A DNA stretch of 64,000 nucleotides from an uncultured Gammaproteobacteria bacterium. GTDB taxonomy: Bacteria; Pseudomonadota; Gammaproteobacteria; Natronospirales; REEB76. The notes beneath the pieces are model-generated. The model had not been told where the DNA came from. It was given only the letters and a program-made list of their open reading frames with translations, and searched no databases. Within the stretch, counting starts at the first letter, position 1; every line of letters begins with the position of its first letter. Of the stretch, positions 15,420 through 42,105 are shown piece by piece. Location of the stretch: NCBI GenBank assembly GCA_964584665.1, contig CAZPAO010000001.1, positions 83,681 through 147,680 on the forward strand. The letters are read 5' to 3'. The translations under genes were made by a program, and so were the position numbers.

Positions 15420-15447
15420 CCCAAGCCATTCCGGCGAGGAAGATCCC

Positions 15448-21835: not shown

Positions 21836-21937
21836 CGCCGGGGTTTTACCCGCATCTGATTGCGGGGTTCACCGGATATCTTGCACGGGCTTTGGATGCG
21901 AGAGTTGCCGCCCGGGGATGCAGGTGCAACCCGGATT

Positions 21938-22735: not shown

Positions 22736-22756
22736 CGGCAGGGTCAAGGCAGATAC

Positions 22757-25585: not shown

Positions 25586-25630
25586 CCCCGCTGGAGCGGG
25601 GCATACAGATCACAACAGGAGATTAGAGAC

Positions 25631-27013: not shown

Positions 27014-28701
27014 TCGCGCCGGGCTGCCACAGCGAGGCGGCGGTCGCCGCCTCGCCCACGCAGCCTGCGCATCACAGCCCGGTTCCGCCGCAGGCGTACG
27101 TCGACGCCCGCTACGTGAAGCCCCAGGGCAAGACCGTCACGGTCGCGTCCGGCGGCGACCTGCAGGCGGCGCTGGATGCCGCCAAGCCCGGTGACACCCT
27201 CGTGCTGCAGCCAGGCGCCGTCTACAGCGGCGGCTTCACGCTGCCCGCAAAGCCGGAGGACACGAGCGGTTGGATCACCATCGAGTCCGCCGCCGTGGCC
27301 CAGGGCCAGCTGCCACCCGGGACGCGGGTGGATCCGGACGATGCGGCGCGCATGCCCAAGCTCGAAGCTTCGAGCGGGCCGGTGCTGCGCACCGACCCCG
27401 GCGCGCACCATTACCGTTTCATCGGCATTGAACTCAGGCCCGGCCCGGCCAAGTCCGGCAGCGCGCTCGGCTGGCTGAAGAACCTGGGTGGTTCGGGCAA
27501 GGATGCGCCGAAGACCGCATTCCTCGAGAACCTGGTGGTATTGGGCAACGGCGACACCAAACTGGACACGCTACCCCATCACTTCATCTTCGACCGCTGC
27601 TACCTGCATGGCGACCCGGTGGTCGGAGCCAAGCGCGGCATCGCGCTGAACGCACGCAACGCCGCGGTCATCGATTCCTACTTCGCCGACTTCAAGAAGG
27701 TGGGGGAGGACAGCCAGGCTATCGCGGCCTGGAACAGCCCAGGCCCGTTCATGATCGTGGACAACTACCTGGAGGCGGCGGGCGAGAACGTGATGTTCGG
27801 CGGGACCGACCCCACCATCCAGGGCGTGGTGCCTTCGGACATCGAAGTGCGCGGCAACCACTTCACCAAGGATCCAGCCTGGCGTGCGGATGCACCGGGC
27901 TACCAGGGCGCCACCTGGAGCATCAAGAACATCTTCGAGCTCAAGAACGCCCAGCGCGTGCTCGTGGAAGGCAACCTGTTCGAGTACAACTGGGCCCAGG
28001 CCCAGGATGGCTTTTCCATCCTGTTCACGGTACGGGACCAGGACGGCACGGCTCCCTGGTCGGTGGTGCAGGACGTGACCTTCAAGGACAACGTGGTCCG
28101 CCACGTCGCCAACGGGGTCAACATCCTCGGTTACGACAACAACCACCCCAGCCAGCAGACCCAGCGCATCCTGGTGGCCAATAACCTGTTCGAGGATGTG
28201 GGCGGTCCTTGGGGCCAGGGTGTATTGCTGCTGATGGGCGACGGCAGCCGCGACGTGACCTTCACCCATAACACCGCAATCCAGACCGGCACCATCGTGT
28301 TCAGCGACGGGCGCGCCGACGAGGGGTTCAGCTACACCGACAACATCGCCCTGCACAACCGCTACGGCATCATCGGCACCAACAAGGGCGTGGGTGTATC
28401 GACCATCTCCGCCTATTTCCCCGATGCCAGGCTACGCCGGAACGTGATCATAGGCGCGGCCTCCAACGAATATCCCTCGGACAACTTCTTCCCCAAGAGC
28501 CTGCAGGGCGTTGGTTTCGCCGGCAACGGCGACTACAGGCTCTCGGCCACCAGCGCCTATAAGTCCGAGGCGGATGACGGCGGTGACATAGGGGTTGATG
28601 CAGACGAACTCTGCATCTCCCTCAAGGCCTACGACCCGCATCTGGGGGACACGGTGGTCTCCTGCACCCCCAACAAGACTGCCGTCAACACGGAGCACTG
28701 A
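26941..28701 (+). CDS. Secreted (possibly lipoprotein) right-handed parallel beta-helix protein; candidate polysaccharide lyase, epimerase or hydrolase
   Basis: Signal peptide with LIAPGC (atypical lipobox). Beta-helix-type repeats include GDTLVLQPGAVYSGGFTL, NARNAAVIDSYF, DNYLEAAGENVMFGG and VTFKDNVVRHVANGVNI. Confidence 0.6.
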   Translation: MPSTVIFRTLYAGLLASGVAGPLLIAPGCHSEAAVAASPTQPAHHSPVPPQAYVDARYVKPQGKTVTVASGGDLQAALDAAKPGDTLVLQPGAVYSGGFTLPAKPEDTSGWITIESAAVAQGQLPPGTRVDPDDAARMPKLEASSGPVLRTDPGAHHYRFIGIELRPGPAKSGSALGWLKNLGGSGKDAPKTAFLENLVVLGNGDTKLDTLPHHFIFDRCYLHGDPVVGAKRGIALNARNAAVIDSYFADFKKVGEDSQAIAAWNSPGPFMIVDNYLEAAGENVMFGGTDPTIQGVVPSDIEVRGNHFTKDPAWRADAPGYQGATWSIKNIFELKNAQRVLVEGNLFEYNWAQAQDGFSILFTVRDQDGTAPWSVVQDVTFKDNVVRHVANGVNILGYDNNHPSQQTQRILVANNLFEDVGGPWGQGVLLLMGDGSRDVTFTHNTAIQTGTIVFSDGRADEGFSYTDNIALHNRYGIIGTNKGVGVSTISAYFPDARLRRNVIIGAASNEYPSDNFFPKSLQGVGFAGNGDYRLSATSAYKSEADDGGDIGVDADELCISLKAYDPHLGDTVVSCTPNKTAVNTEH

Positions 28702-28702
28702 G

Positions 28703-29869
28703 ATGACCGGCTTCATGGCATACGCGTCCCTCTGCTTCTGGATATCGATGATGCTGCTGTCCTACACCTACGTGGGCTATCCGCTGCTGATCCGGCTGTG
28801 GGGTGGCTTGAAGCGGCGCGAGCCCGTGACCGGCTGGATGCAGCCCAAGGTCACGCTGGTGGTGGTGGCATACAACGAATCGCGCCGCATCAAGCAGCGC
28901 CTGGAGAACTTCCTCGACCTGGACTATCCCTGGGACCACATGGAGGTGATCGTGGCCTCGGATGGTTCCACCGACGGCACCGCCGCCAAGGCCCGGGCCT
29001 ACGCCTCGGAGCAGGTGACGGTGGTGGAGTTCAAGCAGCGGCGCGGCAAGAGCGCCGTTCTGAACGACGTTATGCGCATGGCCAGCGGCGAGATCGTGGT
29101 GCTGGCGGACGCGCGCCAGAAGTTCGAGACCGGCGCGCTCAAGGCGCTGGTGGCCTGCTTCGCCGATCCCAAGGTGGGGGCGGTCAGCGGCGAACTCGTG
29201 CTGCTGGACAGCACCGGGCGCGGCTCCGAAGTGGGGAAGGGCGTGGATTTCTACTGGCGCTACGAGAAGTTCATGCGTCTGCACGAGAGCCGCATCGACT
29301 CCACCGTGGGCGTGACCGGGGCCATCTACGCCTTGCGGCGCAAGTTGTTCCAGCCCATCCCTGAGTCGTTGATCCTGGACGACGTGCTCATCCCCATGCA
29401 GGCGGTGCGGCAGGGTTACCGGGTCCTGTTCGAACCCCGCGCCCGGGCCTATGACTGGGTCGCCACCAACGCGCAGCAGGAGTTCACCCGCAAGCTGCGC
29501 ACCATCGCCGGCAATTACCAGCTCTTCTTCCTCAAGCCCTGGCTGCTGAACCCTTTCATGAACCGGCTTTGGCTGCAGACCGTGTCCCACAAGCTGTTCC
29601 GGCTCTTGAGCCCGATCTGCCTGGTGCTGGCGTTCGTCGCCAGCCTGGCATTGGCGCGGGACGCGGGCATCTTCCGCGCCTTGTTCGTGCTGCAGCTCTT
29701 GTTCTACGGGGCCGCGGCCCTGGGTTACTTCACGCGTCACGCGGCGCGCAAGCCTTTCTTCCTCAACATCCCTTATGCCTTCTGCCTGCTCAACTGGGCC
29801 ACGGTGATGGCGCTCGTCCATCTCCTGAATGGCCGGCAGCAGGTCACCTGGGAACGTACCGCCGGTTGA
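28703..29869 (+). CDS. Glycosyltransferase family 2, membrane-bound
   Basis: N-terminal TM helix, GT-A core VVVAYNE...VASDGSTDGT...VLADARQ, and C-terminal TM helices. Confidence 0.8.
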   Translation: MTGFMAYASLCFWISMMLLSYTYVGYPLLIRLWGGLKRREPVTGWMQPKVTLVVVAYNESRRIKQRLENFLDLDYPWDHMEVIVASDGSTDGTAAKARAYASEQVTVVEFKQRRGKSAVLNDVMRMASGEIVVLADARQKFETGALKALVACFADPKVGAVSGELVLLDSTGRGSEVGKGVDFYWRYEKFMRLHESRIDSTVGVTGAIYALRRKLFQPIPESLILDDVLIPMQAVRQGYRVLFEPRARAYDWVATNAQQEFTRKLRTIAGNYQLFFLKPWLLNPFMNRLWLQTVSHKLFRLLSPICLVLAFVASLALARDAGIFRALFVLQLLFYGAAALGYFTRHAARKPFFLNIPYAFCLLNWATVMALVHLLNGRQQVTWERTAG

Positions 29870-29890
29870 TCCCGGCGCTGGAGAACGCAC

Positions 29891-31717
29891 ATGTGTGGGA
29901 TCGTGGGAGCCGTGGGCAGCCGTAACGTGGTGCCTATGTTGATCGAGGGCCTGCAGAGGCTCGAGTACCGCGGCTATGACTCCGCGGGCATCGCCGTGGT
30001 CAACGGCAGCATCAAGCGGGTTCGCAGCGTCGGCCGCGTGGCGGAGATGCAGAGCAAGGCCAACGCCACCCAGCTCGCGGGCGTCACCGGCATCGGACAT
30101 ACCCGCTGGGCCACCCATGGCGGCGTCACCGAGCCGAACGCCCATCCCCACATCTCGCGCGGCGAGATCGCGGTGGTGCACAACGGCATCATCGAGAACC
30201 ATGAGGAACACCGGGCCCGCCTCATGGGCCTCGGCTATACCTTCGAGTCCCAGACCGATACCGAGGTCATCGCCCACCTCATCCATCATCACCTGCAGCA
30301 GCACGGCGACCTGTTCCGGGCTACCCAGGAGACCGCCCGGGAGCTGATCGGCGCCTATGCCATCGGCGTGCTCTCCCTCAAGAACCCGGACGTGGTCACC
30401 GGCGCCCGCATGGGCTGTCCCTTGCTGGTGGGCCTGGGGGAGGGGGAGAACTTCCTCGCCTCCGACGTCTCAGCGGTGCTCTCGGCGACGCGCCGGGTGC
30501 TGTACCTCGAAGACGGCGACGTGGTGGAACTGCGTGGCCAGAGGGTCACGGTCACGGACCGCAACGGCCAGAAGGTGGAACGCCTGCCGCGGGTGAGCGA
30601 CGTCTCCCTCGCCAACATGGATCTCGGCAGCCACCAGCACTACATGCAGAAGGAGATCCACGAGCAGCCGGCCGTGCTCGCCGACACGCTGCGGCCGCTG
30701 GTGGAGGAAGGCTTCACGCCAGCCCTGTTTGGCCTTCGCGCCGATGAGGTATTCCGCGACGTGGATGCGGTGCTGATCCTCGCTGCCGGCACAAGCTACT
30801 ACGCCGGCCTCACCGCCAAGTACTGGCTGGAGGGCGTGGCGGGCATCCCCACCTCAGTGGAGATCGCCAGCGAATACCGCTACCGGGAATCGGTGGCCCG
30901 CCCCCGCCAGCTCGTGGTCACCATCTCCCAATCCGGCGAGACCCTGGACACCCTGGAAGCCCTGAAGCACGCCAAGGCCATGGGCCACGAGAAGACCCTG
31001 TCCATCTGCAACGTGCCTGAGAGCGCCATCCCGCGCGCTTCGGAACTGGTCTTCTACACCCGGGCCGGCGCCGAGATCGGCGTCGCTTCCACTAAGGCCT
31101 TCACCACCCAGCTCATCGCGCTGTTCGGCCTGGCTGGCACCCTCGCCAAGCTCAACGGCCGCCTGTCGGCCGCCAAGGAACAGGACTACATCGCGAGCCT
31201 GCGCCGTCTCACGGAGTGCGTGCAGCACGCCCTCAACCTGGAGCCGCAGATACAGGCCTGGGCCGCGCGCTTCGCCGAACGGGACCATGCGCTGTTCCTG
31301 GGCAGGGGCGTGCACTACCCCATCGCTCTGGAAGGCGCGCTGAAGCTCAAAGAGATCTCGTATATCCACGCCGAGGCGTATCCCGCGGGCGAACTGAAGC
31401 ACGGCCCCCTGGCGCTCGTGGATAGCGACATGCCGGTGGTGGTGATCGCGCCCAACGACTCGCTGCTGGAGAAGGTGAAGTCGAACATGCAGGAAGTGCG
31501 CGCCCGCGGCGGCGAGCTCTTCGTGTTCGCGGACCAGGATAGCCAGTTCACCGAGAGCGAGGGCGTGCACGTGATCCGCACGCCGCGCCATGCCGGCATC
31601 CTCTCGCCCATCGTGCATGCCATACCGGTGCAGCTCCTGGCCTACCACACGGCCCTGCAGCGCGGCACCGACGTGGACAAGCCCCGTAACCTCGCCAAAT
31701 CGGTGACCGTCGAATGA
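29891..31717 (+). CDS. glmS: Glutamine--fructose-6-phosphate aminotransferase (isomerising)
   Basis: MCGIVGAV N-terminus, two SIS domains and the canonical C-terminus [12 protein letters not shown]. 608 aa. Confidence 0.95.
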
Positions 31718-32169
31718 CCATCGAGCAACACAGCAAGTCCTACATGGACGAATACCTGGGCAAGCTGCCCGGACCGCGTCATCTGCCGTCCAATCTGGAC
31801 ACCGACAGCTTCGCCATCGAGACCGACGAACGCCCCTGGGGCCGCTGGAGCCTCCTGCATGAGGGGCCAGGCTACAAAGTGAAGCTCATCGAGGTGCACC
31901 CCGGCCGGCGCCTGAGCCTGCAGTACCACCACCACCGCAGCGAGCTCTGGACCTGCGTGGGCGGCGTGGCCAGTGCGCTGGTGGGCGAGCGGCTGCTGGA
32001 ACTGAAGCCCCGCGAATCCGTGCGCATCGGTCTCGGCGAGGTCCACCGTCTCGGCAACGCCGGCCACGAGCCCGTGTTCATCGTCGAGGTGCAGCAGGGC
32101 GAGATCCTGCGCGAGGACGACATCGTGCGCCTCGAAGACGACTACCAGCGGGCGGGCACCACGCGCTGA
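31714..32169 (+). CDS. Stand-alone cupin, type II phosphomannose-isomerase C-terminal-domain-like
   Basis: [38 protein letters not shown] resembles the cupin domain of bifunctional ManC/AlgA/XanB. ATGA overlap with the glmS stop. Confidence 0.7.
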
Positions 32170-32257
32170 ACCGCCCCGAGTCCCCAAGGACAGCATCCAT
32201 CACTCGCGTGCACGCACGCGGGCTCAAGCCCTACGCATCATAAATGAGGTGATTGCC

Positions 32258-33250
32258 ATGAAATGTCTAGTGACAGGCGGTGCCGGATTCATCGGCTCGC
32301 ACCTGACCCGCGGCTTGCTCCACCAGGGGCACGACGTGTGGGTGCTCGATAATCTCTCCACCGGCAAGCGCGAGAACATCGAGAGCCTGCCCATCGAGTT
32401 CATCGAAGGCGACGTGCGCGACCGTGAGACGGTGCGCAAGGCCGTGCAGGGCATGGACTATGTGTTCCACCTGGCGGCCCTGGCCTCCGTGGGCCGATCC
32501 CTGAAGGACCCCCTCGCCACCCACGCGGTGAACGAGACCGGCACGCTCACGGTGCTGGATGCGAGCCACAAGGCAGGGGTGAAGCGGGTGGTGTTCGCCG
32601 CTTCCTCCTCGGCCTACGGCAACGCGGTGGCCCTGCCCAAGCGCGAGGATGCCACTCCGGATCCCCTCTCGCCCTATGCCGTCTCGAAACTCACCGGCGA
32701 GCACTATTGCAAGGTGTATTGGCAGGCCTTCGGCCTGGAGACCGCCTGCGTGCGCTACTTCAACGTCTTCGGCCCGCGCCAGGACCCGGAGTCGGAATAT
32801 GCCGCGGTGATCCCGCGCTTCATCGACACTGCCCTGAACGGCGGCTCGCCGGTGATCTATGGCGACGGCACCCAGTCCCGTGACTTCACCTACGTGGCGA
32901 ACGCGGTGCAGGCCACCATCGCCGCCGCCACCGCGCCGGAAGCGGCGGGGCAGGTGTTCAACGTGGCCTGCGGCGAGCGCCGCAGCCTGCTGGACCTCGT
33001 CGACATGCTGGAGGACCTCCTGGGGGACCGTATCGTCCCGCAGTTCGAGGCTCCCCGCACCGGTGACGTGAAGCACTCGCAGGCTTCCATCGAGAAGGCC
33101 CAGAAGTACCTGGGCTACGCGCCCGAGGTGCCGTTCAAGGAAGGCCTCAAGGAGACCGTCGACTGGTACCGCAAGTGGCTGGCCCTGGAGCAGTACCAGG
33201 CCCGCGCCCCGCATCTGCAAAGTATCCCGGGCCTGGCCGCTCAGCCGTAA
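32258..33250 (+). CDS. NAD-dependent sugar-nucleotide epimerase/dehydratase (extended SDR; UDP-hexose / UDP-HexNAc(A) 4-epimerase-like)
   Basis: VTGGAGFIGSHL NAD loop and the catalytic YAVSK motif. ATG 32258 sits 9 nt after GAGG. The ORF track shows a GTG at 32249. Confidence 0.85.
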   Translation: MKCLVTGGAGFIGSHLTRGLLHQGHDVWVLDNLSTGKRENIESLPIEFIEGDVRDRETVRKAVQGMDYVFHLAALASVGRSLKDPLATHAVNETGTLTVLDASHKAGVKRVVFAASSSAYGNAVALPKREDATPDPLSPYAVSKLTGEHYCKVYWQAFGLETACVRYFNVFGPRQDPESEYAAVIPRFIDTALNGGSPVIYGDGTQSRDFTYVANAVQATIAAATAPEAAGQVFNVACGERRSLLDLVDMLEDLLGDRIVPQFEAPRTGDVKHSQASIEKAQKYLGYAPEVPFKEGLKETVDWYRKWLALEQYQARAPHLQSIPGLAAQP

Positions 33251-33290
33251 CCTGGAGATATCGGGGACCGCAGAAGTCCCCCAGCCCTGA

Positions 33291-33326
33291 CCGGCCGCCG
33301 GAACTGTCCGGCGGCCGGTTTTTTTT
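33291..33326. terminator. Rho-independent terminator between the convergent EPS locus and the 1,025-aa protein gene
   Basis: Stem CCGGCCGCCG / CGGCGGCCGG with loop GAACTGT, followed by T8 on the plus strand. Confidence 0.85.
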
Positions 33327-33328
33327 GC

Positions 33329-36300
33329 CTATTGGGTCTTGATGAGGGCGTCGGTGACGGTGCCGCCCAGGGTGTTCACGCTCGCCGCCGCCCGCAGGAT
33401 GGAGGCCGGCGCGGTCTTGCTGGTGTAGAACACGGTGCCGTTCTTGTAGTAGTTCACCGTGCCCGCACCCACGGCGATGCGGAACACGTCGCCGGAGGCG
33501 AACTTGGTGTCGGTCTTGTAGGCGCCTTTCTCGTGCACCTCCACGCTGCCACTCTGCAGGCGCAGGGCGTAGTCCATGTTGGCCATGCCGGGGCCGGCTG
33601 CCGGGTTCTCCAGGCCCACGCTGCGCAGGGTGTTGGTCTCCGAGACCACGAACTCCACGTAGCCGTTGCCACCCTGGGTCAGCTGCTGCTGGGAGTCAGC
33701 GATGGCATCCTCGCAGCCGTCGCAGCCGCTGGTCTTCTGCAACGAGCCGCCGTCGGCGGTCACATTGCGAAGGGCGGTCCAGGCCACGGGCAGCACCCGC
33801 GGGAAGCTGGCATAGAGCGCCGCCACCTGCGAGGCATTGAGGGCGGAGCTATAGAGCCGCACTTCGTCCACGGAGGCCGCCAGGTAGGGCTGGGTCGCGC
33901 CGGGGTAACGGGCGAAGTACAGCGAGTCGGTGCTGCTCACGGCACCGGCACGGCCGGTCCAGGCACGGCTGGTCTTGAGCACGCCATCCACATAGAGCTT
34001 GCCGCCGCTAGCGTCGACCGTGTAGGTCACCATGTGCCACTGGCCATCGTTGTAACCCGCGGTCTTCAGCGGACAGCCGCTGTCACCAACGTGATCCGCG
34101 CTGTCGCGCACATACCAGGCGCAGAGGCTGCCGTTGCTCAGGAACACCTGGTAGCCCTTGTAGGAACCGGAAGCGTACTTGTTGATGAGCGCGTGGGTGC
34201 CGCTCGTGTCGGTGGTGTTGAACCAGACCGATGCCGTAAGCGGGTAGGCATCCAGCGCCGCGACATGAGGGACGCTCGCATACTGGTCCACACCGTCGAA
34301 GTTGAGGGCATCGCCCACCACACCCTGGACCCAGACCGGGCTCTTGTGGAGGGTGGCGGTATAAGCGTGACCGGAGCTGTCGGCGGCAGTGGTGCCGGTG
34401 CCGGTGCCGGCGTCGAACTGCCAGTTGCCCAGGGGCTTCGGCAACGTGACCGAACCGCCCGCCTGGGTGGTGAAGGTCTGGTCGGACGAGACGGATTGCT
34501 GCCCCGAGGGATTGCTCGAGATCACCTGGTAGTGATACAGGGTGCCGGGTGTGAGCCCCGCCATGGCCACCGAATGTGCCGTCACCATGCCGGTGTTCAG
34601 CGTGGTGGTGCTGCCGTAGCTCTGGCTGGTGCCATAGGCGACCTGGGAGTTGGCGGACTGGTCGGTGTTCCAGCTCACGGTGGCTGAAGCTGAGCCGGTC
34701 ACGCTGGATGCGACGCCTGAGATCACCGGCGGCAACACCGCGACGTAGGTGGTCACGGAGACGGAGGCTGCCGTCGTGGTGTTCCCCGCCGCGTCGCGCG
34801 CGATGGCGCTGAGCACATGCGCGCCGATAACCTGCTTGGAGGTATCCCAGCTGATCGAATAGGGCGCCTGGGTCACTTCCGCGCCCAGGTTCACGCCATC
34901 CAGCTTAAATTGCACGCCTGCCACGCCCACGTTGTCGGCGGCATCGGCGGAGACGGTGACGCTGCCGGTGAGGGCTGCGCCCAAGAAGGGGGCGGTGAGC
35001 GTGACGCTGGGGGGCGTCGTGTCACTGCTGCTGCCGCCACCGGTCAGGAGCTGATAAGGGATCTTCACCATGAAGGCTTCCATACGGGTGCCGCCCATGT
35101 TGCTGACCCAGAAGAAGTACTGGCCGGTGGGGTCGATGTTCCCCTTCGGGTCCTTGCCGTAGTCGGTGCAACTCGGGCAAGTGGCGTTGCCGCCGGTGGC
35201 GTTGAGGTCGGTCATGACCGGAGCCACCACCAGCGCCTGCTGGGAGGCATGGGGGATGGAACTGTCCAGGCTGAAGCAGATGATCTCGTTGGCGCGGGGC
35301 GAGTTGGTGCGGTTGGCGCCGCTGCCGCAGGCGTACTGCTGGCTGATGGGCAGGGTCGGGCTCGCGTTCTCGAAGCTCACATGGGACGGAGAGAAGGCGC
35401 TCCAATCGTTATCATGGTAGGTCAGCCCTCCCGCCAAGGGGCTCGAGCCTAGGTTCCATACCCGCCAGGCATTGGCATAGTTGTTCCAGTTATCCACGGC
35501 CACGTATGTGCCATAGCCCATGTCCGAGTGGCCGCCGGCGCCGTTCTGGTCTGTAAGTACGGTCTGGGTGCCTGTCTGCAGGTCAACGAACAGGTTGTCC
35601 TCGTCGCAGCTGGCGCAGGTGTCGGAGGGTAGTTTCTCCTTGATGAGGAGGTAGCGGCCGCTCTTGTCTATCTGGCACTCGTCGAACTTGCCCTGGGCGG
35701 GATAGTAGTAGAACTGCTTGGTGCTAACCTTGTAGGCCATGCAGCCCAAGGTCGCATAAGTGCCCGCATCTTCCAGGGTGGCGGAATGGACGTCGTCATC
35801 GTTGCTGGAGTTGGTCTGCTTGATGACTGAGTTGGGGTACTGAGTGGTGGAATCGAACACGGTCTCCATGACGTGGGTCAGCACGTCATAGCGCAGGAGC
35901 TTGGAGCCGGACTGCATGTAGATCTTGGTGGGCATGCCGTAACTGAAGTACCAGCCTTCGGCGCTGTTCCAGCTGTAGGGACTGGAACTCGCGAACAGCG
36001 GGCCCACTTCGGTCAGGGCTTCCGTGGTCTTGTCGTAGCTGAACAGGGTCGGGCCCTGACCGCCGCGATTGCGATCGAGCCCGATGAAGATGTACATCGT
36101 GTTGCTGCCGGCGCTGTTGCTCATGTTGCGCCAGTAGCTGTAGATCATGTCCACGCAGTCCTGGCCGCCGCAGTCGGTGGCGGTGGTGATGCGCACGCCG
36201 CGGGTGTTGTACGGCGCCGGGAAGCTGAAGGCGCCCCGGTCCGGCAGGAAGGCGCTGGTCTGCGCCTGGGTCATCAGGGTGCGCGCGGTAGCGGTCTCAT

Positions 36301-36406
36301 CGTTCTCCAGGAAGCCGCCAGGGGCGGTGGAGGCGGCATGAGCTACGCCGGTGAGGGCCAGGGCGAAGAGCGCGAGGAGGGCGGATAAGGGTCGCCGGAT
36401 GGACAT
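33329..36406 (-). CDS. Large secreted multidomain protein: unassigned N-domain (~450 aa, possibly beta-propeller), Ig-like domain, FN3 domain, LamG/concanavalin-like domain and an unassigned C-domain
   Basis: Signal peptide MSIRRPLSALLALFALALTGVAHA. Ig-like: DNVGVAGVQFKLDGVNLG...ARDAAGN. FN3: ATVSWNTDQSANSQVAYG...GTLYHYQV. LamG: ALNFDGVDQYASVPH...DGQWHMVTYTVD...VDEVRLYSSALNASQVAAL. Confidence 0.8.
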   Translation of the reverse strand: MSIRRPLSALLALFALALTGVAHAASTAPGGFLENDETATARTLMTQAQTSAFLPDRGAFSFPAPYNTRGVRITTATDCGGQDCVDMIYSYWRNMSNSAGSNTMYIFIGLDRNRGGQGPTLFSYDKTTEALTEVGPLFASSSPYSWNSAEGWYFSYGMPTKIYMQSGSKLLRYDVLTHVMETVFDSTTQYPNSVIKQTNSSNDDDVHSATLEDAGTYATLGCMAYKVSTKQFYYYPAQGKFDECQIDKSGRYLLIKEKLPSDTCASCDEDNLFVDLQTGTQTVLTDQNGAGGHSDMGYGTYVAVDNWNNYANAWRVWNLGSSPLAGGLTYHDNDWSAFSPSHVSFENASPTLPISQQYACGSGANRTNSPRANEIICFSLDSSIPHASQQALVVAPVMTDLNATGGNATCPSCTDYGKDPKGNIDPTGQYFFWVSNMGGTRMEAFMVKIPYQLLTGGGSSSDTTPPSVTLTAPFLGAALTGSVTVSADAADNVGVAGVQFKLDGVNLGAEVTQAPYSISWDTSKQVIGAHVLSAIARDAAGNTTTAASVSVTTYVAVLPPVISGVASSVTGSASATVSWNTDQSANSQVAYGTSQSYGSTTTLNTGMVTAHSVAMAGLTPGTLYHYQVISSNPSGQQSVSSDQTFTTQAGGSVTLPKPLGNWQFDAGTGTGTTAADSSGHAYTATLHKSPVWVQGVVGDALNFDGVDQYASVPHVAALDAYPLTASVWFNTTDTSGTHALINKYASGSYKGYQVFLSNGSLCAWYVRDSADHVGDSGCPLKTAGYNDGQWHMVTYTVDASGGKLYVDGVLKTSRAWTGRAGAVSSTDSLYFARYPGATQPYLAASVDEVRLYSSALNASQVAALYASFPRVLPVAWTALRNVTADGGSLQKTSGCDGCEDAIADSQQQLTQGGNGYVEFVVSETNTLRSVGLENPAAGPGMANMDYALRLQSGSVEVHEKGAYKTDTKFASGDVFRIAVGAGTVNYYKNGTVFYTSKTAPASILRAAASVNTLGGTVTDALIKTQ

Positions 36407-36491: not shown

Positions 36492-36503
36492 GGGGTAATA
36501 CCC
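36492..36503. promoter_or_regulatory. Palindrome GGGGTAATACCC (GGGTA-A-TACCC) ~90 nt upstream of the 1,025-aa protein gene; candidate LuxR/NarL-type operator
   Basis: Read directly from the sequence. It belongs to a family of similar palindromes in neighbouring intergenic regions. Confidence 0.3.
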
Positions 36504-36679
36504 TTAAGGTCCCTGCCTTATCGGCAGGAGATATATACCTGCCATGGGTAACAGAGGTTTAAAGATAGAGGAACGCGTGAGTAAACAGCGACAGAAGCGT
36601 GACCTATGTCACATCGGATTGTCGTCGCCTCGCGGTGACAGCGGAAATCAATCAGGGACTGGAGGAAGCGGGGGTCAGG

Positions 36680-37420
36680 TCAGGGCGTGATGAGCTGTCG
36701 GCGGATGGCGTAGCGGATGAGTTCCGCGGCCCTATGTACGTGCAGCTTGTGCATGATGCGGCTGCGATGGGATTCGATGGTCTTGGTGCTGAGGCCCAGC
36801 TCCTGGGCGATCATGCGCGTGGTGTTGCCTTGGGCGATGAGCATGAGCACCTCGCGCTCCCGTTCGCTCAAGGCCTCCGGCTCCGCCTCGCTGCCAGACA
36901 CCAGGGATGAGAGCGCTCCCGAAGAGAGGCGGGTATTGAAGTGGATGATCCCACGGGCGACCTGGCGGATGGTGTTCACGAGTTCTTCGCCGGTCTGGGA
37001 CTTGTGCACATAGCCGTGCATTCCGGCGCGCAGCGCTTCCACGGCGCTGCCATTGTCTTCCTCGTTGGTGAGCAGCACCGTCTGGATCTCCGGCACCGAG
37101 CGCTGCAGCTCGCGGGCCACGGCGATGCCGTCCATCAGGGGCATGTCGTAGTCCAGGATCGCGACATCCGGATGCCGGGTCTCGGCCATCCGCAGGGCCT
37201 CAGGGCCGTCGGTCGCTTCACCGACCACTTCGAAACCCTCATCCTGCAACAGCACTCCCAGGCTCTCGCGGAAGATGGCATGGTCATCCGCCAGCAGGAC
37301 ACGTGTCGGCGTGCCATGGGCGGAGTGATGGATGTCGTTCACCGTCGGCCCTGGGGCTGCATGGTCATGCCTTGATGAAACCGCGGCGTACCGCGTAGCG
37401 CACCAGGCTCGCCGTGTCAT
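36680..37420 (-). CDS. LuxR/NarL-family response regulator (REC plus HTH_LuxR), third regulator of the stressosome locus (RR3)
   Basis: REC: VLLADDHAIFRE...VAILDYDMP. HTH: LSEREREVLMLIAQGNTTRMIAQELGLSTKTIESHRSRIMHKL. The longest ORF (ATG 37420) overlaps the upstream gene by 56 nt. A GTG at 37342 would give 221 aa, so the start is unresolved. Confidence 0.8.
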   Translation of the reverse strand: MTRRAWCATRYAAVSSRHDHAAPGPTVNDIHHSAHGTPTRVLLADDHAIFRESLGVLLQDEGFEVVGEATDGPEALRMAETRHPDVAILDYDMPLMDGIAVARELQRSVPEIQTVLLTNEEDNGSAVEALRAGMHGYVHKSQTGEELVNTIRQVARGIIHFNTRLSSGALSSLVSGSEAEPEALSEREREVLMLIAQGNTTRMIAQELGLSTKTIESHRSRIMHKLHVHRAAELIRYAIRRQLITP

Positions 37421-37994
37421 GGATCTCGAGCTTCTGCATGATGCGGGTGCGGTGTGAATCCGCTGTCTTGGCGCTCAGGCCCAGCACTTGCGCCACTTCT
37501 TTGGTGGTCTTGCCCTCGGCCACGAGCTGCAGCACCTGGCGCTCGCGGTCGGTGAGGGGGTCTGCGGGGAGTTCGGACTTGCCGATGTAGGCATCCACCA
37601 CGGTCTTGGAGATGCCGGGGCTGAGATAGACCGAGCCCCGGCCCACCTCGCGGATGGCGCCGACCAGGTCGGAGGCGGCCTGGGCCTTCAGTACATAGCC
37701 GCGGATGCCCGCGCGCAGGGCTTCCAGCACGTAGGCTTCCTCTTCGTACATGGTGAGGACGATGACCTGGATGCCGGCGGTCTGCTTGAGTATCTGCTTC
37801 GCGGCATCTATGCCGTTCAACAGCGGCATGCCGAGGTCCAGCACCGCGAGTTCCGGTGAGAGCTGGCGGGCGAGGCGCACGGCCTCGTGCCCATCGGCCG
37901 CTTCCGCCACCACGTCGAAACCCTCTCGCTCCAGCAGGGCTTTCAGACCCTGGCGGAACATGGGGTGATCATCAGCGAGCAGGATACGTTTCAT
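37365..37994 (-). CDS. LuxR/NarL-family response regulator, second regulator of the stressosome locus (RR2) and paralog of 38161-38793
   Basis: REC with ADDHPMFRQGL...LAVLDLGMP. HTH: LTDRERQVLQLVAEGKTTKEVAQVLGLSAKTADSHRTRIMQKL. Confidence 0.9.
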   Translation of the reverse strand: MKRILLADDHPMFRQGLKALLEREGFDVVAEAADGHEAVRLARQLSPELAVLDLGMPLLNGIDAAKQILKQTAGIQVIVLTMYEEEAYVLEALRAGIRGYVLKAQAASDLVGAIREVGRGSVYLSPGISKTVVDAYIGKSELPADPLTDRERQVLQLVAEGKTTKEVAQVLGLSAKTADSHRTRIMQKLEIHDTASLVRYAVRRGFIKA

Positions 37995-38099
37995 CCGGGG
38001 GGCACTCGTCCCGCATGCCGCCGTGCGGGAGCACGGGGCAGCGGGGACATATTACCCCCTGACTATGCAGGTGTATTGCCCAAGGCGGAATCGAGGAAA

Positions 38100-38126
38100 T
38101 ACCCCTAATCCGCTGGGTAATCACCC
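38100..38126. promoter_or_regulatory. NarL-type heptamer TACCCCT (38100-38106) plus the imperfect palindrome GGGTAATCACCC (38115-38126), in the spacer between the duplicated regulator genes
   Basis: TACCCCT matches the NarL heptamer consensus TACYYMT as I recall it. A further GGGG-N8-CCCC element containing TTACCCCC lies at 38043-38058. Confidence 0.3.
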
Positions 38127-38160
38127 CAAGGGCGCGACGATGTGACGATAAACCGCGCGA

Positions 38161-38793
38161 TCAGGCCTTGATGAAGCCGCGACGGATGGCATAACGCACC
38201 AGGCTCGCGGTCTCGTGTATCTCGAGCTTCTGCATGATGCGAGTGCGGTGCGAATCGGCGGTCTTGACGCTCAAGCCCAGCACCTCCGCCACCTCCTTGG
38301 TGGTTTTGCCCTCGGCTACCAGCTGCAGCACCTGGCGTTCGCGGCCGGTGAGGGGTTCCGCCGGCAGTTCGGACTTGTTCACGTAGGCATCCACCACGGC
38401 CTTGGAGATGCCGGGGCTGAGATATACGGCTCCGCGCAGCACTTCGCGGATCGCGCCCAGGAGGTCCGCGGCGGCCTGGGCCTTCAGCACGTAGCCGCGG
38501 ATGCCCGCGCGCAACGCTTCAAGCACGTAGGCATCCTCCTCGTACATGGTGAGCAGGACCACCTCGGTATCGGGTGCCTGCTTGTGGATCTCGCGGGCGG
38601 CATCGATGCCGTTCAGCAAGGGCATACCGAGGTCCAGCACCGCCACACGCGGGTTCAGTTGCCGCGCATGCCGCACGGCCTGGTGGCCATCGGCGGCTTC
38701 CGCCACGATCTCGTAGCCCTCGCGCTCCAGCAGGGCTTTCAGGCCCTGGCGGAACATGGGATGGTCATCTGCCAGCATGACTGTCTGCATCAT
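38161..38793 (-). CDS. LuxR/NarL-family response regulator, first regulator of the stressosome locus (RR1), translationally coupled to the kinase
   Basis: Same architecture as 37365-37994 (about 82% aa identity by my manual alignment). The start overlaps the kinase stop by 4 nt. Confidence 0.9.
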   Translation of the reverse strand: MMQTVMLADDHPMFRQGLKALLEREGYEIVAEAADGHQAVRHARQLNPRVAVLDLGMPLLNGIDAAREIHKQAPDTEVVLLTMYEEDAYVLEALRAGIRGYVLKAQAAADLLGAIREVLRGAVYLSPGISKAVVDAYVNKSELPAEPLTGRERQVLQLVAEGKTTKEVAEVLGLSVKTADSHRTRIMQKLEIHETASLVRYAIRRGFIKA

Positions 38794-39722
38794 AGATTGC
38801 TCCCCAGCGGTATGCTGATTCTCAGCTCGGTGCCCGATCCGGGCGTGGAATTGACTTCGAAGGCGCCATAGAGACTGCTGATACGCTCGCGTATGCCCAT
38901 GAGCCCGAGGCCATGGCGCGCGGGAGTACCCGGAGCAGGGGAGGCGAAGCCCCGTCCGTCATCGCGGATCGTGCAGTAGATCAACTGCTGGTCGATCCAG
39001 ATCTTGATCCATACGCACTGCGCCTGGGCGTGGCGCACGATGTTGTTGAGCGCTTCCTGCACGGCCCGGTAGAGCGCGGTCTCCACCTGAGGTGGCAGCC
39101 GGCCATGGTCGAGGATGTCGTTGTCGATGACGATGGTCAGGCCCGCGCGCTTGCGGAAACCGTCCGTGAGGAACTGCAGGGCGGGCATCAGGCCGAGCTG
39201 GTCGAGGATGGGCGGGCGCAGCTCATGGGAGAGGCGCCGCAACTGGTCCGACACCATGTCCAGCTGCTCGGAGATGCGGTCGACATGCTTTCGTACCTCC
39301 GCCGGAGGCGTCTGGCGCTGTATCTCCGCGAGCTCGAGATACACGGAGGCCAACAGCTGCGCCGCCTCGTCGTGCAGGGTATGGGCGATGCGCTTGGCTT
39401 CTTCCTCGAGGATGTTGTTCAGGCGCCGCAAGGCGGCGTTCGACTCGCGGTTCCCGATCTGCATCATCTCGAAAGGGGACATGCTCTCGATGAGGAAATG
39501 ATAGGCGCCATCCAGCTTGCGCGCCTCACCGTCGTGGGTCTCCACCAGCGTTGACACTGCGGAATGATGGATGTTGACGAGGCCCAGCAGCCCGATGCCG
39601 GAGCCGAGCGCCTGGCGACCGAGTTCATAGGCCTGATGCAGCGGCGCTTCGCCGCCGTCTTTCAGGTAGTCCTTCAGGGCCTTGCGGTAGGTCTCGTGGA
39701 GATCGGGGGAGTAGCCGTGCAT
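38790..39722 (-). CDS. Soluble histidine kinase: RsbU_N-like N-terminal domain plus HisKA_3 and HATPase_c
   Basis: No TM segment. The N-terminal ~100 aa (YRKALKDYL...LHQAYELGRQAL...NIHHSAV...FLIESMSPFEM) resemble the RsbU N-terminal (RsbT-docking) domain. H-box HTLHDEAAQLL, N-box QEALNNIVRHA, G-boxes DDGRGF and GLGLMGIRER. Confidence 0.8.
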   Translation of the reverse strand: MHGYSPDLHETYRKALKDYLKDGGEAPLHQAYELGRQALGSGIGLLGLVNIHHSAVSTLVETHDGEARKLDGAYHFLIESMSPFEMMQIGNRESNAALRRLNNILEEEAKRIAHTLHDEAAQLLASVYLELAEIQRQTPPAEVRKHVDRISEQLDMVSDQLRRLSHELRPPILDQLGLMPALQFLTDGFRKRAGLTIVIDNDILDHGRLPPQVETALYRAVQEALNNIVRHAQAQCVWIKIWIDQQLIYCTIRDDGRGFASPAPGTPARHGLGLMGIRERISSLYGAFEVNSTPGSGTELRISIPLGSNL

Positions 39723-39728
39723 GGCGGC

Positions 39729-40340
39729 CTACCCCAGGTAACGCGCGACCAACGCCAGGGCGTCGTCGGTCTTCTTGCAGTAGCGGGAGATGATGCGCTC
39801 AGCGATGTCAGTGACGCTGCCATCGCCGCGGATCTCGTCGGCGAAGTCGGGTGCGATGCCATCGGTGGCGAAGATGATCATGTCGCCGGGCTGCACGCGG
39901 GTCACCGCGGTCTGCAGCGAGGGCAGGCGCTGGCCCACCACGCCGGGGCGCAACAGCAGGTTCTGCTTCACATACCCGGAGCTGGTGGTCTTCAGTAGCA
40001 AGCGGCCCTCCACGTTACCTATGCCGAGCCAGGTCAGGGTGCCTTCATTGGCGTCGAAGCATGCCAGGTTCATGACTGCGCCACGGCTGCCGGTGAGGGC
40101 AGTATGGCAGCGTTTCGCGAGGCTGATGAGGGATTCCTCGCCGGCATGCCGTTCCACGCAGTCCACGGCCCGTTCCGCCGCTGCTGCCGCCTCGCGGCCG
40201 TGGCCCAGGCCGTCGATGACGGCGGCCACCATGCCATTGGGTACGCCCACCATGGCGTGGCGGTCTCCGGACTCAGCCTGGCCCGGCAGCGTGAAGACCG
40301 CTGCGGCCGACTCGATCACATCGCGCATCACTGTAGCCAT
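39729..40340 (-). CDS. rsbX: PP2C-type (SpoIIE-family) phosphatase, RsbX-like
   Basis: 203 aa. ESGDRHAM...AAVIDGLGHGREAA...IFATDGI motifs. Position directly after rsbT. Confidence 0.8.
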   Translation of the reverse strand: MATVMRDVIESAAAVFTLPGQAESGDRHAMVGVPNGMVAAVIDGLGHGREAAAAAERAVDCVERHAGEESLISLAKRCHTALTGSRGAVMNLACFDANEGTLTWLGIGNVEGRLLLKTTSSGYVKQNLLLRPGVVGQRLPSLQTAVTRVQPGDMIIFATDGIAPDFADEIRGDGSVTDIAERIISRYCKKTDDALALVARYLG

Positions 40341-40783
40341 TTCTTGGCCGTGACGGTGGTGCCCTTGTCGGTGCCCGTGTCTATGTAGAATTCATCCACC
40401 ATGCGGCGTACGCCGCATAGGCCGAGGCCCAGGCCGCCGGACGTGGAGTACCCACCCACCAGGGCGCGCTGTACGTCGGGGATGCCGGGGCCGTTGTCCC
40501 GGCTGATGATGATGACGCCGTGCTGGTTCTCGCTGCCGTTCGCCTTGCCGAGCACGATCTCGCCGGTCTGGGCATAGAGCACGATGTTGCGCGCCAGCTC
40601 CGAGATGATGGTGGCGATGAGCGTCGACTCCGTCTCCGAGAAACCGGATTGGAGTGCCAGCTCGCGTCCATGCTGGCGGGCGGTGACGATATCCATCACT
40701 GTCCGGATGGGGATGACTGCCTTGTCGTCCAATTTCCCTTCCGTTGCGCTTCCGCTCTGCGGTGGGTTGACGGGCCTGTTCAT
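40328..40783 (-). CDS. rsbT: Stressosome serine/threonine kinase RsbT (GHKL ATPase)
   Basis: ARQHGRELA...ATIISELARNIVLYA...ISRDNGPGIPD...STSGGLGLGLCGVRRMVDEF. 151 aa. Confidence 0.85.
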   Translation of the reverse strand: MNRPVNPPQSGSATEGKLDDKAVIPIRTVMDIVTARQHGRELALQSGFSETESTLIATIISELARNIVLYAQTGEIVLGKANGSENQHGVIIISRDNGPGIPDVQRALVGGYSTSGGLGLGLCGVRRMVDEFYIDTGTDKGTTVTAKKWLQ

Positions 40784-41166
40784 CTGGATCCCGCTGGCGG
40801 CCCCACGCTCGTACGCTTGGGCCGTGCGTCCAGATAAGCCAGACCTTCTTCCAGGTCGAGGGCAGTGGGCACGCCTTCCAGGCTGAGACCCAGCTGCACC
40901 ATGGAGAACGCCACCTCCGGTTGGATGCCGACGATCACCGTGTCGGCACCGCGCAGGCGGATCATGTGGGCCATGTCCCGCAGCGTTCGCACTGAGAAGG
41001 AATCCATCACGTCCAGGCCCGTCACGTCCAGGATCACGCCGACCGAACGGTAGCGGCCCACCTGGGCCACCAGCCGGTCGCGCAGCGTCACCAGGTCCTG
41101 GTCGGTCAGCACGGCCTGCACCGACGCGATGAGGTAGTTCCTCTGTTTTAGGATAGGGACTTCCAC
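40780..41166 (-). CDS. rsbS: Stressosome STAS-domain protein RsbS
   Basis: Single STAS domain with the phosphorylatable-serine context DVTGLDVMDSFSVRTL. 128 aa. 4-nt overlap with rsbT. Confidence 0.85.
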   Translation of the reverse strand: MEVPILKQRNYLIASVQAVLTDQDLVTLRDRLVAQVGRYRSVGVILDVTGLDVMDSFSVRTLRDMAHMIRLRGADTVIVGIQPEVAFSMVQLGLSLEGVPTALDLEEGLAYLDARPKRTSVGPPAGSR

Positions 41167-41178
41167 GCCGGCGTGTCC

Positions 41179-42105
41179 TTACTCGTTGTTCTTTTCAGTG
41201 ATGGGCATGACCTTGTAACCCAGGAGCTTCTCGGCCTCTTCGATGCCGCCCTGGAGGTCGCCCACCGTGGCCATCTTGCCCAGGTCCACGCCGATGGTGA
41301 CCAGGGTCTGCGCCAGTTCCGGCGCGAGGCCCGTGACGATCACGTCGGCACCGACCAGTCGGGCGGCTTCCACCGTCTGCACCAGGTGGTTGGCGACCGC
41401 GGCGTCCACCGCGGGCACACCGGTCAGGTCCATCACGACCACTCGTGCGCGGTTTACGCGGATGCCGCGCAGCAGCTGTTCCGTCAGCTGACGGGCGCGT
41501 TGCGGGTCGAGGATGCCGATGATGGGCAGGATCAGCAGTCGTTCGCGCACGGCGAGCACTGGGGTGGACAGCTCGCGGATGGCTTCCTGTTGCTGGCGGA
41601 TGATGCGCTCGCGTTCCTGCACGAAGCCCACCGCCACCGTGGTGGCGATGCGGTTCGCGGCGGGCTCATAGGCGTCCAACACGCGGGTCAGCAGTTGCTG
41701 GTTCTGGCCGTATTTGGCGAAGAGGGAGCGTGCCAGCACGTCGCGCAGCAAGAGCACGATACCCACCACTTCGTGCGTCTCGACGCCTCGGGGGATGATT
41801 CGTTCCGACAGGTCGCGGGCGTAGGCTTCGAGGGCTTCGATCGAGCCGGTCTCCAGCGCTCCCAGGTAGTTGTCGTACACCGAGCTTGCTTCCGCCATGA
41901 TCTCTTCGTTGGTCATGGCGGTGAGGAAGCGGGCGCTCATGATCCGGCTGGCCCATACCTCCCGCAGCTGCGTGCGGTTCTGGCGCAAGTGCGCCACCAG
42001 TTCTCGCAGTACCTCGGCGTGGGATTCGTCGTTAGGCGAGCCTACGTTGCCGGACATCTCCGGCTGCAGTGTGCGGTCTCGGCCTTTGCCCTTGTTATCA
42101 GCCAT
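41179..42105 (-). CDS. rsbR: Stressosome sensor RsbR (N-terminal non-heme-globin-like sensor domain plus C-terminal STAS)
   Basis: The C-terminal STAS LILPIIGILDPQRARQL...VVVMDLTGVPAVDAAVANHL...VIVTGLAPELAQTL is preceded by a ~180-aa helical N-domain. First gene of the operon. Confidence 0.85.
   Translation of the reverse strand: MADNKGKGRDRTLQPEMSGNVGSPNDESHAEVLRELVAHLRQNRTQLREVWASRIMSARFLTAMTNEEIMAEASSVYDNYLGALETGSIEALEAYARDLSERIIPRGVETHEVVGIVLLLRDVLARSLFAKYGQNQQLLTRVLDAYEPAANRIATTVAVGFVQERERIIRQQQEAIRELSTPVLAVRERLLILPIIGILDPQRARQLTEQLLRGIRVNRARVVVMDLTGVPAVDAAVANHLVQTVEAARLVGADVIVTGLAPELAQTLVTIGVDLGKMATVGDLQGGIEEAEKLLGYKVMPITEKNNE

Follow-up and report, generated by a model that had tools for sequence, protein, structure and literature searches.

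A predicted seven-bladed beta-propeller family that accompanies an exopolysaccharide operon in uncultured bacteria and recurs in phages

The window analysed here, a stretch of 64,000 nucleotides (nt) from an uncultured gammaproteobacterium of the Natronospirales (GenBank assembly GCA_964584665.1, contig CAZPAO010000001.1, positions 83,681 to 147,680), carries on its minus strand a complete open reading frame (ORF; 33329..36406, ATG start) for a secreted multidomain protein of 1,025 amino acids (aa) plus stop. The N-terminal domain of this protein is confidently modelled as a seven-bladed beta-propeller and belongs to a new family without Pfam or NCBIfam model, PDB sequence match or characterised member. 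Modular exported glycan-directed propeller proteins are already known as a general kind; newly observed here are the association of this family with an exopolysaccharide (EPS) cluster and its sharing between hosts and phages. The protein is best read as a secreted depolymerase-like enzyme for acidic EPS that would be targeted by lectin-like modules, a reading to which about an even chance is given.

Domain architecture, fold and export of the propeller protein

The propeller domain comprises aa ~30-457 (35036..36319, minus strand) and was assigned by means of an AlphaFold (AF2) model, Foldseek and residue conservation. Alignment A1, consisting of the N-terminal domain and 26 homologues with the window sequence as reference row, was used as input for the model, which reached a pLDDT (predicted local distance difference test) of 86.9 and a pTM (predicted template modelling score) of 0.86 and shows 28 strands arranged as seven four-stranded blades. 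The window protein is a full-length match to the 462-position family profile of A1, including the conserved polar core described below. Residues 1-465 matched no Pfam family even at E<=10, and neither the N-terminal nor the C-terminal domain found a match in NCBIfam or among PDB sequences. In the initial annotation, which was made from the letters of the window, this region with its segment IDKSGRYLLIKEK (aa 246-258) had been likened to beta-propeller hydrolases or lyases, and this was right at the level of the fold; the suggestion that both terminal domains lack a described family was borne out by the empty searches. The Foldseek comparison of AlphaFold models that had been proposed for both domains placed the propeller nearest to PL22 among solved structures and the C-terminal sandwich nearest to SPRY.

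Among PDB structures, the best Foldseek matches of the propeller model were the PL22 oligogalacturonate lyases (OGL) 3pe7 (E 1e-12, template modelling (TM) score 0.55/0.67) and 3c5m, with generic propellers such as TolB and WD40 following from 2e-8, four orders of magnitude behind. The best structural match overall was an unnamed viral protein of 1,172 aa (A0A8E5NQ64, BFVD; E 1.9e-16, TM 0.65), whose UniProt identifier was not mentioned by any paper in a literature search.

Residue conservation was determined for 217 full-length propeller domains with 37-75% identity. Thirty-eight positions are conserved in at least 95% of these domains, including R42, R72, D78, K126, S201, E243, D247, H293, Y416, D425, N436, R441 and D/E443, and a further set (E150, Q197, D295, H342, Q357, N373, E374 and K421) is conserved in 88-95%. 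The polar core is formed by 18 residues (R42, R72, K126, Q197, E243, H293, D295, N306, H342, Q357, N373, E374, Y416, K421, D425, N436, R441 and D/E443), of which position 443 is Glu in the window protein and Asp in the family consensus. D247 is kept in the bacterial members and changed in two phage copies. Three conserved disulfide pairs are predicted within the propeller (C79/C84, C222/C244 and C360/C377). According to the model, R72, E150, Q197/S201, E243/D247, H293/D295, H342 and K421/N423/D425 are located on or beside the innermost strand of each blade. Inner strands are the usual place of active or ligand sites in propeller enzymes, and the many basic residues of the core would suit an anionic substrate.

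A word-indexed search with the propeller returned at least 1,252 matches, down to E 1e-233, none of which carried a Pfam annotation on the propeller part; the source names of the relatives were limited to 'Ig-like', 'LamG domain-containing' or 'hypothetical'. By exhaustive profile search, 1,107 clusters (50% identity) were obtained at E<=1e-3 and 435 at E<=1e-30. What had been a 'hypothetical Ig-like domain protein' has been assigned to a defined domain family, which counts about 1,100 clusters and for which a confidently modelled fold and a handful of candidate active-site residues are now available. The propeller occurs alone (~450 aa) or fused to Big_7, FN3, LamG_3, Big_13, DUF1349 or TSP3. 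In 15 long relatives that were scanned, no known catalytic domain was fused to it, and the partners were non-catalytic sandwiches only (Big_7, FN3, LamG_3, Big_13 and DUF1349). Since the propeller also stands alone and these partners are non-catalytic, the function should reside in the propeller.

In the window protein the propeller is followed by the three middle domains that had been named in the initial annotation, and all three were recovered with Pfam. The Ig-like domain (aa 466-534, 34805..35011, minus strand) matches Big_7 (PF17957) with E 7.9e-15 and 55.7 bits against a gathering cut-off of 24.1. The FN3-like domain (aa 565-647, 34466..34714, minus strand) matches Pur_ac_phosph_N (PF16656) with E 1.2e-9 and 39.1 bits against a cut-off of 30; the fn3 model itself (PF00041) stayed at 16.9 bits, under its cut-off of 25. 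The LamG/concanavalin-like domain (aa 663-867, 33806..34420, minus strand) contains a Laminin_G_3 (PF13385) core at 704-862 (E 3.5e-21; 76.4 bits against a gathering cut-off of 27.6) and also matches an S-layer LamG structure, PDB 4qvs (E 1.5e-8).

The C-terminal domain (aa 871-1025, 33332..33796, minus strand), for which a jelly-roll-like fold had been suggested, is modelled as a ConA-like, SPRY-type bent beta-sandwich on the basis of AF2 (pLDDT 93.6), Foldseek and alignment; 'SPRY-like' makes the earlier description more precise. Residues 868-1025 matched no Pfam family even at E<=10, and the SPRY model (PF00622) was unmatched in aa 858-1025. Foldseek gave the SPRY domains of RanBP10, Ash2L and TRIM proteins (TM 0.64-0.69, root mean square deviation 3.2-3.7 A), with about 20% identity to that of RanBP10. 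GH16 and L-type lectins score close to these, so that only the designation 'ConA-like or SPRY-like' is safe. The domain shares its bent beta-sandwich with SPRY/B30.2 domains (RanBP9/10, Ash2L, TRIM) and the ConA-like superfamily; it differs from SPRY/B30.2 in its bacterial origin and extracytoplasmic location, in a conserved CxxC loop and in the lack of a Pfam SPRY match. The CDGCED motif noted earlier is present at aa 895-900, and its CxxC (C895/C898) is nearly invariant among homologues. Conserved motifs are the KTSGCDGC loop and GDVFRIAV...YYKNG, and in some homologues the domain is duplicated in tandem.

The gene is present as a single copy in the window and has a GC content at third codon positions (0.87) like that of the other window genes, and a Shine-Dalgarno sequence GAGG lies 9 nt 5' of its ATG. 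The identical 1,025-aa protein was called on 5 contigs from two ENA metagenome assemblies. The predicted signal peptide (aa 1-24, MSIRRPLSALLALFALALTGVAHA followed by AS; 36335..36406, minus strand) has an AXA site after the sole hydrophobic segment of the protein, residues 6-28, which end in AHA/AS. Its n-h-c layout is MSIRRP, LSALLALFALALTGV and AHA/A. These features, which had already been recognised as a Sec signal, fit Sec export. All 14 Cys of the protein are found in seven local pairs, which fits an exported, disulfide-forming protein. Tat export via the RR of MSIRRP is an alternative that is less likely because of the disulfides.

The convergent exopolysaccharide operon and the phage copies

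The propeller gene is convergent with an EPS operon segment (19904..33250, plus strand) that was annotated with Pfam and found by synteny counts to co-occur with it. This segment encodes AsnB, a methyltransferase, a glycosyltransferase (GT) of type GT4, a formyltransferase, a deacetylase, a UDP-sugar dehydrogenase (UGD), the protein Hyp586, a GT2, GlmS, a cupin and an epimerase, the last gene, whose stop is at 33250. The wider plus-strand EPS locus comprises a priming transferase, two UGD, Wzy-like and flippase-like proteins, several GT4 and GT2, two AsnB-type amidotransferases, a heparinase II/III-like protein, deacetylases, GlmS, the epimerase and a sulfotransferase-like gene.

For the analysis of synteny, one genome per species was scanned, yielding 181 relatives and 78 retrieved loci. 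All 78 loci are from metagenome-assembled genomes (MAGs), i.e. from uncultured organisms. The arrangement of the window had been found in three individual look-ups, which concerned a gammaproteobacterial bin and one MAG each of the Verrucomicrobiia and Rokubacteria. The hosts belong to the Gammaproteobacteria (soil MAGs, Pseudohongiellaceae, Lysobacterales, Porticoccaceae), Acidobacteriota, Rokubacteria/NC10, Nitrospirae, Binatia, Verrucomicrobiia and Natronospirales. When the window proteins were compared with the 78 loci by tblastn, matches were obtained for the GT2 in 49 loci, the SPRY-like domain in 42, Hyp586 in 38, UGD in 35, the LuxR response regulator in 33, GT4 in 30, the RsbU_N kinase in 27, AsnB in 24, the epimerase in 23 and the heparinase II/III-like protein in 19. 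Of the syntenic partners of the propeller gene, Hyp586 (38/78) is the most specific one.

The layout is constant: regulators are followed by one to three propeller genes and then by the convergent EPS operon, in the order (epimerase)-GT2-Hyp586-UGD-(deacetylase-formyltransferase)-GT4-AsnB-heparinase-like. Among the 53 loci with at least 7 kb of downstream sequence, a convergent GT2 is present in 39, and 36 have Hyp586 or UGD in addition, with the order kept. Of the 55 loci with at least 5 kb upstream, 25 carry a LuxR response regulator and 23 the RsbU_N kinase on that side of the propeller gene. The convergence with the EPS locus and the position directly downstream of three LuxR regulators, both of which had been pointed out for the window, are thus present and recur in other genomes, the former far more strongly than a single window could show. 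The family has thereby gained a specific genomic partner, an EPS cluster common to never-cultured soil, groundwater and marine bacteria.

These counts bear on the unlikely reading that the protein is an enzyme or binding protein for another target, such as foreign glycans used for nutrition or another envelope polymer, and that its adjacency to EPS genes merely reflects a common biofilm or stress regulon. In favour of such a target, a propeller-Big_7 paralogue of ~600 aa exists in a Gcw_chp context without EPS genes, and the convergent GT2 is missing in 14 of the 53 loci with adequate flank. However, distant phyla share the order and convergence with respect to GT2-Hyp586-UGD, and regulons would not be conserved over such distances; the propeller gene is not accompanied by transporter or catabolic genes.

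Side observations were made on these loci. The shorter paralogue type was found without EPS genes nearby in L003 (P0007, from the same metagenome sample as the window, ERZ27245408) and L011-L015, where a Gcw_chp outer-membrane protein, a 170-aa protein, the paralogue and a 75-aa protein form a conserved context. In many genomes two or three tandem propeller genes with differing sandwich tails are located between the regulators and the EPS operon (L033, L035, L040, L043, L047, L050, L060, L061, L070 and L078; also L004). Propeller genes at 52-72% identity occur in L010 and L013 (both labelled Bacillota MAG97) and in L051 (labelled Patescibacteria). In L010 the gammaproteobacterial-type synteny is complete, in L051 the upstream regulator module is present, and the taxon labels of the three loci are probably due to mis-binning.

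Within the window, Hyp586 (26941-28701, plus strand; 528 aa as called in the source assembly) has a signal/lipobox-like N-terminus, no Pfam match at E<=10 and no transmembrane helix; its repeats resemble a right-handed beta-helix. Hyp586 itself represents an unannotated family. EPS genes at 154-21835 (plus strand) gave matches below the cut-offs of NCBIfam models for XrtA/PEP-CTERM systems, namely to the O-antigen-ligase-like PEP_O_lig_1, to a stp2-type GT4 and to two eps_aminotran_1-type AsnB. A HAF-repeat protein (15286-16572) inside the EPS locus has a C-terminal end without PEP-CTERM motif.

In addition to the bacterial loci, seven propeller relatives with 35-44% identity were found in an IMG/VR scan, and none of the INPHARED phage genomes matched the propeller in tblastn. 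All seven IMG/VR contigs carry large terminase or phage replication genes beside the propeller gene and are genuine phage; no EPS genes were found near these seven relatives. In L091, genes for a terminase, a virion protein, a minor tail protein and a tail assembly protein are followed by that for a 571-aa protein composed of a 130-aa N-terminal part and the propeller. In L090, a virion structural protein of 2,963 aa ends in the propeller (its last ~430 aa), and a tail-fibre assembly chaperone is encoded directly after it. The arrangement in L090 and L091 corresponds to the layout of receptor-binding or depolymerase proteins. Stand-alone propellers of 409-449 aa are encoded ~2 kb or less from the terminase gene in the high-GC contigs L085, L087, L088 and L089, and a fifth is found beside phage replication genes in L086; none of the five has a signal peptide. 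The 18-residue polar core is kept in the phage copies (with Asp at position 443), and the disulfide cysteines are replaced.

Phage tail proteins contact polysaccharides of the host surface through their distal domains, which bind and in many cases also cleave them. In the phage tail or virion proteins of L090 and L091, which are comparable to tail-fibre or tailspike receptor-binding proteins with depolymerase domains, homologous propellers form the C-terminal part near tail-assembly or chaperone genes. In contrast, the window protein is chromosomally encoded between regulators and an EPS operon, has its propeller at the N-terminus, possesses a signal peptide and disulfides, and lacks a virion-anchor domain. 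n-bladed beta-propellers are one recognised fold class of phage depolymerases (PMC11326577). The independent use of the family in phage tail proteins points to recognition of surface glycans.

Candidate function and rival readings

Synteny and phage usage together indicate that the propeller deals with cell-surface or extracellular polysaccharide. A depolymerase is the best reading because the nearest solved fold is that of an enzyme, because the charged, His-containing core is strict and survives in phages, because stand-alone copies including unanchored phage ones exist, and because secreted carbohydrate-active enzymes equipped with binding modules have a similar architecture. The conserved UGD implies uronic acids, which are substrates of lyases, and UGD together with the sulfotransferase-like gene of the window locus fits an anionic substrate. 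The protein would be exported via its cleavable signal peptide and stabilised by disulfides. The propeller would be the working part, recognising the acidic, uronic-acid-containing EPS of the convergent operon and most likely cleaving it by beta-elimination or hydrolysis; the Ig and FN3 modules would serve as spacers, and the LamG and SPRY-like sandwiches as carbohydrate-binding modules keeping the enzyme on the polymer. Transcription would start from an own promoter in the 273-nt gap upstream of the gene and would probably be controlled by a stressosome acting through an RsbT-like kinase and an RsbU_N-fused histidine kinase on the NarL/LuxR-type regulators, and probably by a CRP-family protein as well. 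The analysis established the domain architecture, fold, family size, synteny, phage usage, conserved residues and conserved cis elements, whereas catalysis, substrate, module roles and regulation are inferred. AlgL, PslG, PelA, BcsZ and PgaB are dedicated EPS-processing enzymes encoded within EPS operons. Like them, the window protein is exported and genetically tied to one EPS cluster across taxa; unlike them, it has another fold and family, and its gene lies outside the operon, convergent to it and with a predicted regulated promoter of its own.

Several points weigh against the depolymerase reading. PF14583, the Pfam model of PL22, did not match the window protein at E<=1 or E<=10, and when PDB sequences were searched with the propeller family profile, no OGL and nothing else relevant was found. 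Comparison by hhalign of the 217 propeller sequences with 121 OGL sequences gave a probability of 2.7% (P 0.017), and that of the 217-sequence alignment with two OGL sequences gave 4.4%. The YeOGL sequence was fetched from the PDB with an Ogl sequence that served only as bait. On the strength of the empty profile search and these hhalign probabilities, sequence-level kinship with PL22 is unsupported and was rejected. PL22 enzymes are reportedly cytoplasmic and Mn-dependent (Abbott et al. 2010), with a Mn2+ site of H287, Q350, H353 and H355, a Q-x-x-H-x-H motif in blade 7 and His242 as base. In the 3pe7 sequence, these five residues are present as numbered. In a low-confidence hhalign alignment, the blade-7 segment Q350-V-T-H353-P-H355 of PL22 stands opposite D-P-K-G-N-I-D. 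H293 and H342 of the window protein may correspond to PL22 H242 and H287, as judged from strand positions alone: in CTH242EFW and CSH287LMS of PL22 and in GGH293SDM and PSH342VSF of the window protein, the His would stand first on the inner strand in blades 5 and 6. Conservation of the PL22 active site is at best partial. Moreover, the propeller-Big_7 paralogue type is found outside EPS loci, phage tail-tip domains may be purely binding, and the EPS locus holds two other candidate polymer modifiers, the heparinase II/III-like protein and the beta-helix-like Hyp586.

The same comparisons bear on the very improbable reading that the protein is a divergent true PL22 member acting on pectin-derived oligogalacturonides. 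The top PDB fold matches, YeOGL (3pe7) and Vibrio VPA0088 (3c5m), do share the seven-bladed fold with the propeller, at 10-12% identity. Unlike PL22, however, the window protein is exported with a signal peptide and three conserved disulfides, contains an extra N-terminal segment of ~70 aa and carries Ig, FN3, LamG and SPRY-like modules behind its propeller; the Q-x-x-H-x-H metal-binding motif is absent in the low-confidence alignment, and pectin-utilisation genes were not found nearby. Together with the Pfam and profile results, the export and neighbourhood tests and, as far as that alignment goes, the missing motif effectively refute true PL22 membership.

The main rival reading, possible but on balance less likely, is a non-catalytic matrix protein or adhesin, in which propeller, LamG and SPRY-like domains would all be lectins that bind, cross-link or tether EPS, and from which phages would have taken the propeller purely as a receptor-binding tip. 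The synteny and phage data demonstrate glycan targeting and not catalysis, and the catalytic metal motif of PL22 is not conserved as far as the low-confidence alignment goes. Tandem arrays of two or three paralogues with varied sandwich tails in several genomes, up to 7 Ig or 9 FN3 repeats in repeat-rich relatives, which are typical of adhesins, and the presence of other candidate EPS-modifying enzymes in the locus likewise agree with an adhesin. On the other hand, the nearest solved fold is an enzyme and not a lectin propeller, the conserved His, Asp, Glu, Arg and Lys on the inner strands are unusually strict for a lectin and persist in phages at 35-44% identity, and stand-alone phage propellers without virion anchor fit a soluble enzyme better than a fibre tip. 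A precedent for adhesins of this kind is given by Bap1 and RbmC of Vibrio cholerae, matrix proteins with an eight-bladed propeller and beta-prism lectins that are encoded next to an EPS cluster. They resemble the window protein in that a secreted beta-propeller is combined with lectin-type sandwiches and an EPS cluster adjoins, and differ from it in having eight blades instead of seven and in their beta-prism lectins. Bap1 and RbmC were not among the top 50 Foldseek PDB matches of the propeller, and no sequence relation to them was found.

If the depolymerase reading is carried further, it may tentatively be proposed that the N-terminal domain founds a new CAZy family of lyases or hydrolases, whose fold would be PL22-like and whose active site would be its own, and which would be employed both beside a phylum-spanning EPS cluster and at phage tail tips, and switched on in the host by the stressosome, the RsbU_N kinase and the NarL-type regulators for stress-triggered remodelling or release of the matrix. 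A catalytic propeller would represent a new depolymerase family, which would help to annotate the receptor-binding proteins of phages and to dissect the EPS of biofilms and flocs in the environment. The gene is also a candidate output of a Gram-negative stressosome wired into a two-component system, and such targets are poorly known.

Upstream region, regulators and terminator

A CRP/FNR-type palindrome, TGTGACATAGGTCACG (36598..36613), is located 192-207 nt upstream of the ATG and is conserved in loci L007-L010. CRP-type sites with at most one mismatch occur in 17 propeller upstream regions out of 70, where 0.45 would be expected; they are situated 160-270 nt upstream, and the non-EPS paralogue type is among the genes concerned. 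Of the 28 such sites in 1.3 Mb of loci, 16 are in propeller upstream regions. This suggests control of propeller genes by a CRP/Clp/Vfr-like regulator.

The palindrome GGGTA-A-TACCC, to which attention had been drawn at ~90 nt upstream, is indeed present (GGGTA-N-TACCC; 36493..36503, 87-97 nt upstream of the ATG) as the sole exact copy within the window, but it is not kept in the closest loci L007-L010, and the CRP/FNR-type site is the better-conserved cis element. Three of the four exact matches in 1.3 Mb are upstream of propeller genes (L011, L040 and L061). An interpretation of the palindrome as NarL 7-2-7 heptamers was rejected by eye, the half-site orientation being wrong. In an alignment of five orthologous regions, the conserved blocks GGCAGGTATATATC and CCGATAAGG (36516..36543, minus strand) form a candidate promoter or leader element, and the other blocks of the 273-nt gap shared with L007-L010 are GTTTAC...TTTAA, CCGRTAAGG and a GGGT...ACCC inverted repeat. 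The upstream region had no Rfam match and an RNA folding z-score of -1.93, which is not convincing. In the CCTGCC/GGCAGG stem, a single compensatory change was seen, which is confined to L007; as covariation of the stem is limited to the two closest loci, no claim of a structured leader RNA is made. A scan of the upstream region for the sigma-70 consensus yielded no promoter; the promoter may plausibly depend on an activator.

Three tandem REC+GerE (NarL/LuxR-type) response regulators, identified with Pfam at 36680..38793 (minus strand), are the candidate regulators. The longest ORF of the proximal one (36680-37420, 246 aa) overlaps the preceding gene (37365-37994, minus strand) by 56 nt; considering this overlap and the 220 aa called in the source assembly, its real start is probably downstream of 37420. 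The adjacent stressosome-type input module (38790..42105, minus strand; Pfam) consists of an RsbU_N-HisKA_3 kinase, a PP2C protein, an RsbT/W-like kinase and RsbS-like and RsbR-like STAS proteins. RsbT activates RsbU through the RsbU N-terminal domain, and the gene content of the module looks like a wiring of RsbT to a histidine kinase. Its predicted link to the propeller gene is drawn from synteny only. Stressosome loci that feed two-component systems have been described, e.g. in Vibrio vulnificus (Pane-Farre 2005, as cited in PMC10014275); these and the activation of RsbU by RsbT are the analogies on which the cascade proposed above is built. In loci of that type, RsbR/S/T/X-like genes are likewise followed by a sensor kinase and one or more response regulators; the window differs in that its kinase fuses RsbU_N to HisKA_3 and in that its output consists of three NarL/LuxR DNA-binding regulators instead of a c-di-GMP enzyme.

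Between the epimerase stop and the main hairpin of the convergent gene pair, a second inverted repeat, GGGGAC-CGCAGAA-GTCCCC, was observed at 33264-33283, with no T-tract on either strand. The main hairpin (33289..33320, plus strand) has a 14-bp GC-rich stem, and its T7 tract is confined to the plus strand; read on the minus strand, the hairpin comes after an A-tract and is not followed by a U-tract. The claim that the two genes share a terminator therefore holds in part: the hairpin between them has the features of a canonical intrinsic terminator for the EPS operon, and it is unidirectional by its T-tract, acting at best as a hairpin-only terminator for the propeller gene.

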